Positions 3,328 through 64,000 of a stretch of 64,000 bases of DNA are shown piece by piece. The translations under genes were made by a program, and so were the position numbers. The DNA is from Escherichia phage vB_EcoM-CHD94UKE2. The stretch is from the sequence record MZ234031.1, one strand, 5' to 3'. The notes beneath the pieces are model-generated. The model worked only from the letters and a program-made list of their open reading frames with translations. It was not told where the DNA came from and searched no databases. Position 1 is the first letter of the stretch. Each line of letters begins with the position of its first letter.

Positions 3328-4356
3328 ATGAAAACTCGTTCTCAAATTGAAGATATGGTTCGTAATGCCAGCTATACTCGTGATGTTATGACATTTTTGT
3401 GTGAAAATAATTTAGACCCTGATAAAGTTAATCGTGTTATTCATCACTTTAAGTATACGAATAGCAGTGAATGGGTGCGTAATTTTAGTAAAGCAGGGTA
3501 TATTACACAAATGACTGCTCGTGAACAGCTCACCGATTTCTGTAAAACTATTGATTATAAAAATCCTTTGATTGTTCAAGGCGTTGGTCAAAGTAAGGTC
3601 GATTTATCATCTGGATTTTTCAATCCAAATCATTATCGTATTGAATGGAGATTTATTGCTCTATTCCGTAAACAATTAAAGCAAATTTTGTCTACTGCTA
3701 GTCGATTAAAAGGCTCTGATATTAACTTAAAGAACCTGAAATTTGATGGTTATACTCTTCAGATGGAAGTAAGACCGTTAAAAGAAAATAATAGAACTGC
3801 ACGAATTAGCTTTAAGCCTAATACTAAAAATTCTCTTTCAATTTGTGAATGTCTTAAATCACAGCTGACAGAAGCATTTAAGTATATGGATGTTGTTGCT
3901 GCTGTTCAATCTAAGATTTTACCTCGTTTTGAGCGAAATTGGGAACATACAACAACATATGAACTTGATATGATCGTTTCATTTAAATATGAATTTTTGA
4001 GAAAGGATGAAATTGTTCAAGAGAAAAAGCAGGAAGTGCAAGATACCTTAAATTTAAATTTATCCAATTACTTATCAAACGATCCTAAATTTTGGATGTA
4101 TAGCTCAAGCAATATAGATGCATGTAAACTTAATAAAGTGAGTTTTCTTCCTACTGAAAATTCAAATTTTAAACCTGTAGAAAAATGGCACGCTGACGCG
4201 ATTGAGAAGTCTCTTAAGGCAGTAGATGATGAACTCGTTAAAGCGACCAATGAAGTGCTAGAAGCTGAAAAGGCGTTAGAACAAGCTCAGTCAAGGGTTC
4301 AAAATCTGACAAAGCAACGTTCTAAACTGAACAATGCACTAAATGCACTGAACTAG
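3328..4356 (+). CDS. hypothetical protein, paralogue B (342 aa)
   Basis: AAGGAA SD; N-terminus MKTRSQIEDM; C-terminal coiled-coil-like segment. Confidence 0.6.
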   Translation: MKTRSQIEDMVRNASYTRDVMTFLCENNLDPDKVNRVIHHFKYTNSSEWVRNFSKAGYITQMTAREQLTDFCKTIDYKNPLIVQGVGQSKVDLSSGFFNPNHYRIEWRFIALFRKQLKQILSTASRLKGSDINLKNLKFDGYTLQMEVRPLKENNRTARISFKPNTKNSLSICECLKSQLTEAFKYMDVVAAVQSKILPRFERNWEHTTTYELDMIVSFKYEFLRKDEIVQEKKQEVQDTLNLNLSNYLSNDPKFWMYSSSNIDACKLNKVSFLPTENSNFKPVEKWHADAIEKSLKAVDDELVKATNEVLEAEKALEQAQSRVQNLTKQRSKLNNALNALN

Positions 4357-8539: not shown

Positions 8540-9013
8540 ATGTTATTGACTGGCAAATTATACAAAGAAGAAAAACAAAAATTTTATGATGCACAAAATG
8601 GTAAATGCTTAATTTGCCAACGAGAACTAAATCCTGACGTTCAAGCTAATCATCTTGATCATGACCATGAATTAAATGGACCAAAAGCAGGAAAGGTACG
8701 TGGATTGCTTTGTAATCTCTGCAATGCTGCAGAAGGTCAAATGAAGCACAAATTTAATCGTTCTGGCTTAAAGGGACAAGGTGTTGATTATCTTGAATGG
8801 TTAGAAAATTTACTTACTTATTTAAAATCCGATTACACCCAAAATAATATTCATCCTAACTTTGTTGGAGATAAATCAAAGGAATTTTCTCGTTTAGGAA
8901 AAGAGGAAATGATGGCCGAGATGCTTCAAAGAGGATTTGAATATAATGAATCTGACACCAAAACACAATTAATAGCTTCATTTAAGAAGCAGCTTAGAAA
9001 GAGTTTAAAATGA
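8540..9013 (+). CDS. 49: endonuclease VII (Holliday-junction resolvase)
   Basis: 157 aa, MLLTGKLYKEEKQ..., Cys cluster; matches T4 gp49 by recall. Confidence 0.9.
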   Translation: MLLTGKLYKEEKQKFYDAQNGKCLICQRELNPDVQANHLDHDHELNGPKAGKVRGLLCNLCNAAEGQMKHKFNRSGLKGQGVDYLEWLENLLTYLKSDYTQNNIHPNFVGDKSKEFSRLGKEEMMAEMLQRGFEYNESDTKTQLIASFKKQLRKSLK

Positions 9014-60447: not shown

Positions 60448-60720
60448 ATGAATAAAAATATTGATACAGTTCGTGAAATTATTACTGTTGCGTCTATTTT
60501 GATTAAATTTTCCAGAGAAGATATTGTTGAGAATCGCGCTAATTTTATTGCATTTCTGAATGAGATTGGAGTAACGCATGAAGGTAGAAAGTTAAATCAG
60601 AATTCATTCCGTAAAATTGTTTCTGAATTAACTCAAGAAGATAAGAAAACCCTCATCGACGAATTCAACGAGGGTTTTGAGGGTGTATATCGATATCTAG
60701 AGATGTATACGAACAAATAA
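60448..60720 (+). CDS. asiA: anti-sigma-70 factor AsiA
   Basis: 90 aa, MNKNIDTVREIITVASILIKFSREDIVENRANFIAFLNEIG... Confidence 0.95.
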   Translation: MNKNIDTVREIITVASILIKFSREDIVENRANFIAFLNEIGVTHEGRKLNQNSFRKIVSELTQEDKKTLIDEFNEGFEGVYRYLEMYTNK

Positions 60721-61377
60721 TTATTTAGCCCTTCCTAATATTCTGGCCGCCTGAGCACATATTGATTCAAGGCGGTCATTACTTATATGATCATTTCTAT
60801 ACCAGTACATGGTTATTGTTCCAGCATAGATATTATCCAAATTAAAATATGGACAACTGTACATGTAGTTTATTTCGGGAGTAGGCTTTTTAGTTGGTAA
60901 AAAAGCAAATTTTGAGTCGGAATAATAATGACGTCCATTTAAATGAACTGTATATTCATCCATAGTTTTATCAACAGGATATCCTCCAAGTGATTTTTCA
61001 CTTATTGTTGAAGGTAATTTTCCTTCATATGCTATAATATCAACAAAATAGTTTAAGTTTTTAGGGCGGAAAGAATACACCGCACTAAAGTCTGCCTCAG
61101 ATGATATATGAACTATCTGGAGTTGTTCCAGGGCGACAGATTCAAAGCGTGCATTTCTTTCCTTTTCAATAATTTCACTGTATGTTTCATACTTTGATTG
61201 CTTATAGTACTCAAAGAAACTATCTCCCCTATACCAAACAATCGCCATCATAAATAAAAGAATTACGACAGCTACCCGGGAAGCAAGAACTTTCCCGGTA
61301 GCGTTATCTTTGAACAAGCGATCTAGAACACCAAACAGAATACCAGAGGGCGAAAATGATATTCTAGGTGCTGCCAT
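60721..61377 (-). CDS. t: holin T
   Basis: 218 aa, N-terminal TM helix then large periplasmic domain; AAGGAGGG SD; abuts asiA stop. Confidence 0.95.
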   Translation of the reverse strand: MAAPRISFSPSGILFGVLDRLFKDNATGKVLASRVAVVILLFMMAIVWYRGDSFFEYYKQSKYETYSEIIEKERNARFESVALEQLQIVHISSEADFSAVYSFRPKNLNYFVDIIAYEGKLPSTISEKSLGGYPVDKTMDEYTVHLNGRHYYSDSKFAFLPTKKPTPEINYMYSCPYFNLDNIYAGTITMYWYRNDHISNDRLESICAQAARILGRAK

Positions 61378-61407
61378 AGACCCTCCTTTTAAGGGTATTT
61401 ATTCACA

Positions 61408-62190
61408 TTATACTCTTGGACCATATATTGCTCCAACATTTTGCCATGTTGGAGCGGACCCTATGACAGCATAACCAGCAGCGCCGCCATTATATTCAGA
61501 TCCTTGACCGCGAATATTGCATCTACCTCCCGCGGAACCTACTTCACCACCGTTTCCACCATTATAGATACCATTCACGGATCCTGAGCCAGGTGCAGAA
61601 ATAGTACCGCCAGTCGCGCCTGATTGCATATCAATAGATCCTCCTGGCGCACCAAAAGGACGACCGCCACCACCACCAAAGGTCAATCTCATTTGTGAAA
61701 AAGGAGAATAATATCCGCCGCCGCCACCGCCGCCACCGCCTGCAATAGCTCCGCCATTATTAATTCTTAGTCTCCCACCAATATCGTTTTGAATACAATG
61801 ACCTCCAGCTGAGCCAGGACTATTGCTACCGCCATTACCTCCACGACCATACATCGTTACGCCATGTATATTTAACTGAACATATTCATTTGGTGTATCT
61901 CCGTACATGAAGAATAAAGGAACATCTTTAGAATAAGAAACGATATCACCAACAATATTGAATACAATAGGTGCACCGCCAGCTTCAAAGCATCTATCAC
62001 GGAACCACTGACCATTAAAATTGTGGTTTGCTCCTACAGTATGAATAATTTCTCGTGAGCGACCTGCAAATTGACTCATCCAGCAAGGAACACCCAATCT
62101 TAATTGACCAGCCGCTTGACTCATCCAGCGCTGTCCTGTTTCATTTGCGGCTGAACTTCCAATCCAACCAGGAACACCAACTACTGCCAT
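61408..62190 (-). CDS. 38: tail-fibre adhesin gp38 (T2-type, glycine-rich motifs)
   Basis: 260 aa with poly-Gly blocks ([26 protein letters not shown]) separated by variable segments. Confidence 0.75.
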
Positions 62191-62200
62191 AATTTATACT

Positions 62201-62220
62201 CCAAAGGGGGCATTTCCCCC
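62201..62220 (-). terminator. hairpin between genes 37 and 38
   Basis: GGGGG-AAATG-CCCCC on minus strand, short U tract. Confidence 0.4.
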
Positions 62221-62226
62221 TTGTTG

Positions 62227-64000
62227 TTAGAATTTAAAATATTTACTAATTTTGCGAGCAATTTTAGTAAAGAGAGGCGTTTTCAATTCTTTAATTTCTT
62301 CACTCATTTCCTGAATAGCCTTAATTAAAAGAGCATTCACAGCAGAGTTAGAAATTGTCAGAACATCAGATCCATCAACTTCAACTTTAGATACAGCTTC
62401 CGGTAATTCCTTTTCAAGGTCCTGAGCAATAATACCAACTTCACGTTTAATAACACTACGGTCTTTAATAGACTTAACTTTATCGTAAATATAAACTTTC
62501 AGTCGGCAAACTTTTTCGACTGCTCCATATTCTAATTCTTCTTTATTAATCTTGAGACGGGAGTCAGAACGAATATACACATCGCTAAAGCTACCATTTC
62601 CTGGTGTATAAAAGAATCCATCATGATGGAATTCAAACACAGCTTGTGGGTGTCCAGCATCAGGAGAAGCCTCCGTGGATCCGACACGAATGATTGCTTG
62701 CCCCCACTGTGATGGAATACGACGCATACCAAAGTCAACAGCGGTGCTATATCCTTGATTGGTTATAACGCTTCTTGCTTTAAGAATAGGATAATAACTA
62801 TCTTGACCAACATAACCATGATCAACGAATAATGGAGCTTCTACTCGCCATTGGTTGCCCCAATCACCCGGTTGTCTAGCAATCCATCCAGAACCGTTAA
62901 TGTGTACACGGTCACGGTTAACGTTAACCATTGCGGTATTTTGCGGGTTTAACGCAATCTCACCATTGTTTGTGATATGTACTGCCGCCTGAGAAGCATA
63001 GCTATAAAATGCTAGCGAATTATCAGCACCACCCTTGCCAATATACCAGTTACCAGTCCCGTCTATGTCACCGCGAATATGCAAAGAATTACTAGCAGTT
63101 GTTGATAATACAATAGAATCATTAGGTGCATTGATTGTTAACCGACCTGTCATCGTATCACCGCCTTTACCTAGGCGAGTATTCAAGGCAGCATCTAAAT
63201 TGGTTGCATCGTTGTATTTCTTCCAGATTGAACCAGCAATGTTACCATCAGTGTTCAAGAATGCTGCGCCAGCATAAACTCGGCTTTGTGACATGAATCG
63301 GCCAGACGGCAAGAAACGCCATATAGCTAATTCAGTGGCTGTAGTTCCAGTAGCGGATAAATCACCCTGAGCAACGATACGATATTCTGAACTAGCAATA
63401 TCCATACCAGAAGCCATAGTAATATTTGTTACAGTGTTTTTCTGTTTAACAATTGGCGCAAACTGGTTTTTATTTGAATCGTCAATAGCCTGATATAATG
63501 GCGCAATGGTAGTATTCTGATTTGCGTAAGTATTAGAACCAGAACCGCTAGCAGGGGCTTGAATATATGCTCCTGGAGCAAGTGAAATTTTCTGATTAGC
63601 ACCAAGATTAACAGCAGCAGTGATATTCAGCAATCCCCTAAAGTTTTGTTGAGCAGTCCAAGTGTGTGATCCGTCTTCAAGAACAACACGACGACAAGTA
63701 TTAGTCCTACTTCCTGGATTACCAGCGATACGAACAACGAAATAACGATAGTTCGCCTGAGATACAGTACCGCGCCACACTTGAACAGTTCGACCCGTTC
63801 CGGTATGTTCGCTAGGACCGACAGAAAACATAACCAGGTTTCCATCAATCGTGCCCCAATCCATATTTGCTGGCATATTCTTTATTTTGTTCAAAGGAAC
63901 ACTAAACATACTACCAGGGACAAAATCAAAGGTTTGCCAATCTAACTCCGCTAATTGAGCTTTAATACCACCCATACCCAAAGTAATTGGCAGAGAATAA
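62227..64000 (-). CDS. 37: long tail fibre distal subunit gp37, C-terminal part (5' end beyond window)
   Basis: open frame continues to window edge; C-terminal SDSRLKINKEELEY... chaperone-like domain. Confidence 0.85.
   Translation of the reverse strand, partial: YSLPITLGMGGIKAQLAELDWQTFDFVPGSMFSVPLNKIKNMPANMDWGTIDGNLVMFSVGPSEHTGTGRTVQVWRGTVSQANYRYFVVRIAGNPGSRTNTCRRVVLEDGSHTWTAQQNFRGLLNITAAVNLGANQKISLAPGAYIQAPASGSGSNTYANQNTTIAPLYQAIDDSNKNQFAPIVKQKNTVTNITMASGMDIASSEYRIVAQGDLSATGTTATELAIWRFLPSGRFMSQSRVYAGAAFLNTDGNIAGSIWKKYNDATNLDAALNTRLGKGGDTMTGRLTINAPNDSIVLSTTASNSLHIRGDIDGTGNWYIGKGGADNSLAFYSYASQAAVHITNNGEIALNPQNTAMVNVNRDRVHINGSGWIARQPGDWGNQWRVEAPLFVDHGYVGQDSYYPILKARSVITNQGYSTAVDFGMRRIPSQWGQAIIRVGSTEASPDAGHPQAVFEFHHDGFFYTPGNGSFSDVYIRSDSRLKINKEELEYGAVEKVCRLKVYIYDKVKSIKDRSVIKREVGIIAQDLEKELPEAVSKVEVDGSDVLTISNSAVNALLIKAIQEMSEEIKELKTPLFTKIARKISKYFKF

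Follow-up and report, generated by a model that had tools for sequence, protein, structure and literature searches.

A T6-like distal long-tail-fibre tip module in Escherichia phage vB_EcoM-CHD94UKE2, with a predicted self-cleaving gp37 and a gp38 adhesin of the Tsx-associated subtype

The window analysed here is a stretch of 64,000 nucleotides from Escherichia phage vB_EcoM-CHD94UKE2 (MZ234031.1), which ends in genes of the long tail fibre. The gene order, 37-38-t/asiA, is canonical for T-even phages (the holin context was also taken from the annotations of G3F10 and WilhelmHis). The following features were assigned:

60721..61377, minus strand: holin gene t, directly downstream of gene 38 (Pfam Phage_holin_T, 1.3e-116)
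61408..62190, minus strand: gene 38, an ORF for gp38, a tail-fibre adhesin of 260 aa and 26.2 kDa, T6/Tsx subtype
61471..61848, minus strand: gp38 specificity domain, aa 115-240, with GRM1-5 alternating with HVS1-4 (from the segment list)
62065..62190, minus strand: gp38 N-terminal attachment domain, aa 1-42 (Pfam Gp38_N)
62199..62222, minus strand: spacer between genes 37 and 38 with a GC-rich stem-loop, GGGGG-AAAUG-CCCCC at 62206-62220
62227..64000, minus strand: 3' part of gene 37, for the distal long-tail-fibre subunit gp37 (residues 393-982 of 982; Pfam gp37_trimer and Peptidase_S74)
62230..62568, minus strand: gp37 intramolecular-chaperone (Peptidase_S74) domain, Ser870-Phe982, 113 aa, 12.9 kDa
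62947..63099, minus strand: match to the gp37 trimerization region, aa 301-351 of the fragment (Pfam PF20744 gp37_trimer, E 3.9e-07, 30.4 bits, cut-off 21.7)

The window coordinates of the gp38 and gp37 reading frames are exact. The gp37 frame is cut by the window end, so that its C-terminal 590 aa are visible, and the full length of 982 aa was taken from near-identical records. A 36-nt spacer separates the stop codon of this S74-bearing gp37 from gene 38. The DNA of the region was 99.9-100% identical to four deposited Tequatrovirus genomes, namely G3F10, Isf-Pm2, WilhelmHis and UTI-E2. The record of Isf-Pm2, which has an identical gp38, names Proteus mirabilis as the host, and this is unexplained. 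A sigma-70 scan of positions 60600-64000 found fewer promoter-like sites than shuffled sequence (4 vs 10.4), which is uninformative here because late genes use a different promoter type.

The stem-loop in the spacer lies directly 5' of the gene-38 Shine-Dalgarno sequence GGAG (62199-62202) and has a minimum free energy of -15.8 kcal/mol (z -2.06). Hairpins of different sequence occupy the same place in T6, T2, IME339, AV115, STP4-a, JS98 and ZX14; the structure persists in Tequatrovirus, Mosigvirus, Gelderlandvirus, Dhakavirus and Kanagawavirus, with a sequence that varies between them. If the hairpin were a dedicated regulatory element fixing the gp37:gp38 output at 3:1, it could act, for example, as a partial 3' barrier or a site of processing, or it could modulate the translation of gene 38. 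We regard such a role as doubtful, the alternative being a generic intercistronic hairpin of T-even mRNAs. The annotation of phage PST places the start of gene 38 further upstream (MPPLEKIM...). In the window, the hairpin loop contains an AUG, but its frame is not that of gp38, and it is therefore not an alternative start.

The Pfam matches of both proteins lie far above chance level. The profile PF05268 GP38 matched gp38 over its entire length (positions 1-218 of 218) with an E-value of 3.4e-70 and 236.7 bits (cut-off 25), and PF21721 Gp38_N matched aa 1-42 (6.3e-20, 71.3 bits, cut-off 25). In the PDB, gp38 aligned over its whole length with the adhesins of PP01 (9V85, 1e-75) and S16 (6F45_D, 1e-50). 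Glycine accounts for 37% of residues 115-245 vs 12% of residues 1-114, with runs of nine (151-159) and five (172-176). In this C-terminal half, five Gly-rich motifs (GRM1 115-121, GRM2 146-159, GRM3 171-180, GRM4 211-219, GRM5 235-240) alternate with four variable segments (HVS1-4), and GRM1-5 aligned column for column with those of T6, T2, PP01 and S16. The initial annotation had described a 260-aa gp38 with poly-glycine blocks between variable segments, and the reading frame, the two runs and the layout bear this out. The same arrangement has been described for such adhesins (PMC3157838, PMC12032242). The specificity domain is described as a predicted polyglycine-II sandwich with receptor-binding loops; this fold, and a gp38 monomer at the virion fibre tip, are what homology to 6F45_D and 9V85 suggests. 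In the N-terminal domain, Trp9, Trp22 and Trp37 match the three Trp residues of S16 gp38 in the alignment. The docking role of the latter was described for 6F45 (PMC6851490), and the three residues of the present protein are likewise predicted to dock into the gp37 trimer.

By sequence, the module belongs to the T6 rather than the T2 subtype. The gp38 was identical to that of T6 at 250/260 positions (96.2%), the two proteins differing by ten substitutions and one single-residue indel. Over the specificity domain (residues 115-260), the alignment suggested by the initial annotation gave 142/146 identities with T6 vs 75/141 (about 53%) with T2; the values for PP01 and S16 were 56% and about 53%, respectively. 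HVS1 was the same as in T6, and HVS2, HVS3 and HVS4 carried 1, 2 and 1 substitutions. The four differing positions are S165/P, D187/N, A199/S and N234/D. The label "T2-type" used earlier therefore holds as a generic term of the literature (PMC12892980), but not as the subtype, which is T6 (96% vs 53% for T2).

The receptor, previously stated to be unreadable from the sequence, can be read once databases are consulted: the gp38 is that of WilhelmHis/Bas35, and its segments are the T6/Tsx set (Trojet 2011). All 260 residues were identical to the gp38 proteins of WilhelmHis and Isf-Pm2, and the specificity domain matched that of CM8 at 145/146 positions. Infection by WilhelmHis/Bas35 is tsx-dependent and fully complemented (PMC8594841), the receptor of CM8 is Tsx by RB-TnSeq, and one set of variable segments is common to Tsx-recognising adhesins (PMC3157838). 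We can confidently predict from the gp38 sequence that Tsx is the primary receptor, because the protein is identical to the adhesin of the experimentally tested, Tsx-dependent WilhelmHis/Bas35. One altered residue in a variable segment of gp38 can switch the specificity or broaden it, as in PST compared with T6 (PMC3157838) and in RB68, where gp38 Q206L switched the receptor from OmpF to OmpW. Near-identity alone is therefore no proof; here, the identity to a tested adhesin is complete. The nearest record carries a gp38 Q166R variant, at a known host-range position; R166 is the state of G3F10 and Q166 that of the window.

A wider or different specificity would mean that OmpA or LPS is used besides Tsx, as by the Yersinia phage PST, or that the receptor lies outside E. 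coli, e.g. in Proteus. Changing a few residues of HVS2 and HVS3 is enough to widen specificity (PMC3157838; RB68 Q206L), four positions of the specificity domain (S165, D187, A199, N234) are not those of T6, and Isf-Pm2, with the same gp38, was recorded on Proteus mirabilis. Against this, the tsx-dependence of WilhelmHis, with infection restored by complementation, was found with an identical adhesin, and host labels at the CDS level in GenBank, such as Proteus, are no evidence of a receptor. The PST-type extension was rejected, as the window has the T6 state at all three PST-specific positions (Q166, M167 and G207). We consider a widened or altered specificity quite improbable, and Tsx is kept as the predicted primary receptor.

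The C-terminal part of gp37 had been noted earlier as resembling an intramolecular-chaperone/autoproteolysis motif. The quoted string, YIRSDSRLKINKEELEY, was found in gp37, and the resemblance was substantiated by a match to Pfam PF13884 Peptidase_S74 at fragment residues 478-536 (E 2.8e-10, 40.7 bits, cut-off 22) and by a Ser-x4-Lys dyad. Position 1 of the profile is Ser870, the serine that opens S870-D-S-R-L-K875. The motif S-D-x-x-x-K was invariant in the 11 gp37 sequences compared; VYIRSDxRLK was unchanged in the window, T6, RB9 and T2, and S-D-x-x-x-K was retained in six further genera or species. The S16 gp37 chain (6F45_A) aligned across the S74 domain. When either the gp37 fragment or its chaperone domain served as the query, single-sequence phmmer searches of the PDB returned S16 gp37 and weak matches only. 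A profile built from five gp37 chaperone domains reached the ICA domain of MYRF (7DC3, 4.4e-10) and the chaperone domain of GA-1 (3GUD, 1e-4), with no match to T5 pb1 or K1F endosialidase in the PDB. The 3GUD chain starts at the aligned SDERHK, and its residue 1, i.e. that of the released GA-1 domain, aligns with Ser870 of gp37. For T5 pb1, a Ser/Lys dyad mechanism with cleavage N-terminal to the Ser has been reported (PMC4690869). Autocleavage of gp37 is accordingly placed, as a prediction, between Arg869 and Ser870, with Ser870 and Lys875 as the dyad.

That the S74 domain is instead retained uncleaved, or is catalytically dead, appears highly improbable. Cleavage is predicted here from the sequence, and for the family fold, a trimeric coiled coil with a flanking alpha/beta domain, the single-sequence AlphaFold2 model of the 133-residue gp37 C-terminus had a pLDDT of 45, too low to be of use. 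However, Ser870 and Lys875 are both present and invariant in all gp37 proteins compared, and residues 851-950 of the S74 region are 100% identical to T6, whose gp37 is reported to be cleaved. A retained domain would also block the fibre end needed for gp38 docking.

The analysis supports placing gp38 among the T2/T6/S16 adhesins, as opposed to the T4-type chaperones, because its Pfam matches are to the GP38 adhesin families only and it aligns at full length with 6F45_D and 9V85, in line with the initial annotation; no tail-fibre assembly protein family was matched in Pfam at E ≤ 0.01. A mere assembly chaperone, with gp37 bearing the receptor-binding tip as in T4, would fit the position of gene 38, which is that of T4 gene 38, and the names of some homologue records ("distal long tail fiber assembly catalyst", "tail assembly protein"), but it is already contradicted by the Pfam result, by full-length homology to adhesins whose structures were solved at the tip of the fibre and by a gp37 that terminates in a removable S74 domain and not in a T4-type needle tip; the names are legacy annotation carried over from T4, and we assign this reading next to no probability.

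The locus thus very probably encodes the distal long-tail-fibre tip module of a T6-like Tequatrovirus, with a self-cleaving gp37, a gp38 cap and binding to Tsx. By analogy with its homologues, three gp37 chains would form the beta-helical fibre, each chain contributing its C-terminal S74 domain as a chaperone. When the trimer has formed correctly, Ser870, activated by Lys875, would cut the Arg869-Ser870 bond, and the fragment of 113 residues (12.9 kDa) would depart. One gp38 would then cap the new fibre end through the N-terminal helical domain that carries Trp9, Trp22 and Trp37, giving a predicted gp37:gp38 stoichiometry of 3:1. Its Gly-rich motifs would pack as a polyglycine-II sandwich and display the four variable loops, by which the primary receptor, the E. 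coli nucleoside channel Tsx, would be bound.

Such a module is an ordinary, well-described T6-like receptor-binding tip. Cleavage of gp37 and capping by gp38 are already in the literature, reported for T2 and T6 (Drexler 1986, as cited in PMC3157838). It is this module that determines the host range of the phage; the value of the present assignment lies mainly in correct annotation, and no open question is advanced. The Tsx call is useful for the design of phage cocktails and helps to predict the resistance that arises when tsx is lost. We must also note that receptor calls for gp38 are now feasible by comparison with experimentally typed collections.

Among known systems, the closest is WilhelmHis (Bas35, MZ501113, BASEL collection), which belongs to the same species, Tequatrovirus gee4498, and differs by 4 nucleotides in 3.3 kb. 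Its gp37 has one residue different over the 590 visible aa. This change, I618T, lies in the shaft, and the loop of the hairpin between genes 37 and 38 differs at one base; functionally, these differences are unremarkable. T6 has the same 37-38-t gene order, and its gp37 is 96-100% identical over residues 1-450 and 800-982, S74 domain included, whereas residues 500-700 are only 14-46% identical, indicating a mosaic shaft.

In the S16 gp37(3)-gp38 complex (6F45), gp38 aligned over residues 5-257 (1e-50), including the three docking Trp residues and all Gly-rich motifs, and SDRRIK of its gp37 S74 domain aligned with SDSRLK of the window. S16 is unlike the present module in its variable loops, with about 53% identity in the specificity domain, and in its receptor, Salmonella OmpC. 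The gp38 proteins of PP01 (9V85) and T2 belong to the same family and have the same GRM/HVS layout, and the beta-helix region of PP01 gp38 is near-identical to residues 44-120 of the window gp38. In contrast, the variable segments of PP01 (OmpC) and T2 (FadL/OmpF) have no sequence relation to those of the window.

T4 gp38, a 183-aa assembly chaperone, is an unrelated protein that has nothing in common with the present one except its gene name and its map location, downstream of gene 37; T4 gp38 is absent from the virion, and T4 gp37 itself binds the receptor (PMC6851490, PMC12892980). The S74 domains of K1F endosialidase, T5 pb1, the GA-1/phi29 appendage and MYRF share with that of gp37 the Pfam S74 family, the Ser-x4-Lys dyad and the location at the very C-terminal end of a trimeric fibre, and they agree in size (113 aa here vs 133 in T5 pb1). 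In those systems, loss of the domain uncovers the final receptor-binding or enzymatic tip itself, whereas in gp37 it would uncover a site at which another protein, the adhesin, docks.

The module at 61408-64000 comprises gene 38, encoding a glycine-rich adhesin, and the 3' part of gene 37, encoding the distal long-tail-fibre subunit. Together with the adjoining gene t, both lie on the minus strand:

60721-61377, minus strand: T holin, 218-aa ORF (Pfam Phage_holin_T, 1.3e-116)
61408-62190, minus strand: gp38, 260-aa ORF (Pfam GP38 PF05268, 3.4e-70; Gp38_N PF21721, 6.3e-20)
62227 to window end, minus strand: 3' part of gp37, 590-aa fragment, an open frame with its start beyond the window

The module coordinates and the 260-aa length of gp38 agree with the initial annotation. 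The gp38 ORF covers the complete GP38 profile, and the gp37 fragment matched gp37_trimer (PF20744, 3.9e-07). A TTG at 63981, given as the gp37 start in the ORF listing, was rejected as an artefact of the window cut. In near-identical records, those of G3F10 and WilhelmHis among them, gp37 has 982 aa, so the window holds residues 393-982. Those two records also show the canonical T-even gene order, 52-motA-arn-asiA/t-38-37.

Deposited genomes carry practically the same DNA. The 3.3 kb from 60700 to 64000 shared 99.9-100% identity with four of them, namely Escherichia phage vB_EcoM-G3F10 (1 nt difference), Proteus phage Isf-Pm2 (2 nt), Escherichia phage WilhelmHis (4 nt) and Escherichia phage UTI-E2. 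Altogether the region had matches in 548 phage records; these are Tequatrovirus phages, with G3F10 and WilhelmHis assigned to the species Tequatrovirus gee4498. The module is a known feature, correctly recognised, and every element of it is in the literature. The adhesin family was reportedly described by Riede, Drexler and Henning and by Trojet in 2011, its structure reportedly by Dunne in 2018 and for PP01 in 2026, and the mechanism of the gp37 C-terminal Peptidase_S74 (S74) chaperone is known from K1F and T5 work.

Glycine made up 37% of gp38 residues 115-245 vs 12% of residues 1-114. Four hypervariable segments (HVS) were set apart by five glycine-rich motifs, with runs of nine and five glycines, which bears out the poly-glycine blocks and intervening variable segments initially described. 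Full-length gp38 aligned with the receptor-binding domain of PP01 gp38 (9V85, 1e-75; PMC12892980) and with S16 gp38 (6F45_D, 1e-50). In S16, pockets of the gp37 trimer take up three tryptophans of gp38 (PMC6851490), and the counterparts of these residues here are W9, W22 and W37. In CM8 gp38 (MK962750) residue 37 is Leu (W37L), leaving two of the three docking tryptophans; CM8 is nonetheless viable and uses Tsx, the E. coli nucleoside channel. A T4-like chaperone role, from which the initial annotation had already set gp38 apart, was excluded by the adhesin-family assignments, and 'assembly catalyst' and similar names in some records are legacy transfers.

Identity of the gp38 specificity domain (residues 115-260) to that of other phages
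Phage; identical/compared; receptor
CM8; 145/146; Tsx
T6; 142/146; Tsx
RB9; 140/146; -
PST; 139/146; Tsx plus OmpA
PP01; 81/144; OmpC
T2; 75/141; FadL/OmpF
S16; 70/132; OmpC (Salmonella)

Judged by these alignments, gp38 is a T6-subtype adhesin. 'T2-type', as the module was first called, holds as the literature's generic label for phages bearing gp38 at the fibre tip (PMC12892980), but not as a subtype: whole gp38 was identical to that of T6 at 250/260 positions vs 53% for T2, and the specificity domain with its variable segments gave 142/146 for T6 vs 75/141 for T2. One set of four variable segments is common to nearly all Tsx-recognising gp38 adhesins (Trojet et al., PMC3157838). CM8 was typed Tsx/HepI by RB-TnSeq, and exchange of the distal half of its gp38 turned it to OmpA (bioRxiv 10.64898/2026.04.02.716166). 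Moreover, gp38 was identical (260/260) to that of WilhelmHis (Bas35), whose tsx dependency 'could be fully complemented' in the BASEL study; the receptor of this very adhesin has been on record since 2021 (PMC8594841). We counted this identity as decisive; Tsx is thus the expected primary receptor, and database comparison overturned the earlier statement that the receptor cannot be read from sequence.

A broadened or different receptor is possible in principle, as single variable-segment substitutions can switch it. The identity of gp38 to the WilhelmHis adhesin makes such a change unlikely in this phage. The Yersinia/OmpA-extended PST adhesin is distinguished from T6 by 167R, 168I and 208I in T6 numbering (PMC3157838); at these three positions gp38 carries the T6 residues (Q166, M167, G207). 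The sole G3F10 difference in the 3.3 kb, at 61694, falls in gp38 codon 166 (Q166R), and R166 is the PST state in HVS2 (167R in T6 numbering), a position linked to extended host range. We also observed that Isf-Pm2 (OL741432, 1209-1991) encodes an identical gp38 (260/260) with Proteus mirabilis as the deposited host; either its hosts extend beyond E. coli or the label naming the host is doubtful.

The 36-nt spacer between genes 37 and 38 contains a GC stem-loop at 62206-62220 (region 62199-62222, minus-strand RNA; MFE -15.8 kcal/mol, z -2.06), which follows the gp37 stop codon and adjoins the gene-38 Shine-Dalgarno on the 5' side. Hairpins occupy the equivalent site in T6 (GGGGC-UUU-GCCCC), in T2, IME339 and AV115 (GAGGGC-UUCG-GCCCUC) and in STP4-a, JS98 and ZX14 (GGGCC-(U/C)UCG-GGCCC); in the comparison records these hairpins lie at ~8700-8727 (L005), ~3975-4000 (L003) and ~370-400 (L009-L012 and L014). 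The structure is conserved while the stem sequence differs between T6, T2 and Gelderland/Dhaka/Kanagawa types, and a UUCG loop is frequent. Among the phages compared, only Cronobacter phage S13, in which genes 37 and 38 overlap, had no such hairpin. Stable C(UUCG)G intercistronic hairpins have long been known from T4 transcripts, and ours resembles them; it probably belongs to the stable hairpins of a generic kind that separate cistrons in T-even mRNAs. In PST (KF208315, 7639-7659) gene 38 is annotated to start 7 codons upstream (MPPLEKIM...), at an AUG in the hairpin loop. The loop AUG of the window does not share the gp38 reading frame, so this upstream start in PST is probably an over-extension of the gene.

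Compared with T6, gp37 residues ~500-700 (window 62900-63700) were 14-46% identical, vs 96-100% in both flanks. The shaft is thus mosaic, and this low-identity middle between near-identical ends fits recombinational exchange, which is usual in these tail-fibre genes. RB9 gp38 was 95% identical to that of the window, but its distal gp37 was only ~20% identical over gp37 residues 700-850, save for a stretch of ~30 residues just ahead of the cleavage site. From this divergence, gp38 may dock on nothing more than the extreme tip of mature gp37.

Residues 478-536 of the gp37 fragment matched Peptidase_S74 (PF13884, 'chaperone of endosialidase'; 2.8e-10, 40.7 bits, cut-off 22 bits). A five-domain gp37-type profile matched 7DC3, the MYRF ICA domain (4.4e-10), and 3GUD, the GA-1 chaperone domain in its released form (1e-4), confirming the chaperone-like C-terminus of the initial annotation, whose quoted motif was found as stated. 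Ser870 occupies profile position 1 within S870-D-S-R-L-K875, and the 3GUD chain start, SDERHK, aligned exactly with it. 'VYIRSDxRLK' was invariant in gp37 of the window, T6, RB9 and T2, and S-D-x-x-x-K was kept in IME339, AV115 (Mosigvirus), STP4-a (Gelderlandvirus), JS98 (Dhakavirus), S13 and ZX14 (Kanagawavirus), in all six of which an adhesin-type gene 38 follows. The single-sequence AlphaFold2 model of the domain had a pLDDT of 45, too low to confirm the fold. By homology, an autoproteolytic intramolecular chaperone forms the C-terminus of gp37, with cleavage predicted before Ser870; mature gp37 would then have 869 aa (94.1 kDa) and the fragment cut off 113 aa (12.9 kDa; computed values). 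A non-cleaving S74 domain is unlikely, as the Ser870/Lys875 dyad is intact and invariant and residues 851-950 are 100% identical to T6 gp37. Such processing is already on record for T2 and T6 (Drexler 1986, as cited in a passage of PMC3157838).

In the mechanism we propose, the S74 domain would assist gp37 trimerisation, as in K1F and T5, and Ser870/Lys875 autocleavage would free residues 870-982. One gp38 would then dock onto the new gp37 end via W9, W22 and W37 in a 3:1 complex, as suggested by 6F45. A polyglycine-II sandwich of its glycine-rich motifs, like that of 6F45 and 9V85, would present the variable loops, which would bind Tsx as expected from the identical adhesin of a Tsx-dependent phage. 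The serine of T5 pb1 homologous to Ser870 is Ser1264. Lys1269, which lies five residues further on, activates it, and the Thr1263-Ser1264 bond is cleaved only after correct trimer folding, the serine departing with the chaperone (PMC4690869). Ser870 and Lys875 show the same five-residue spacing.
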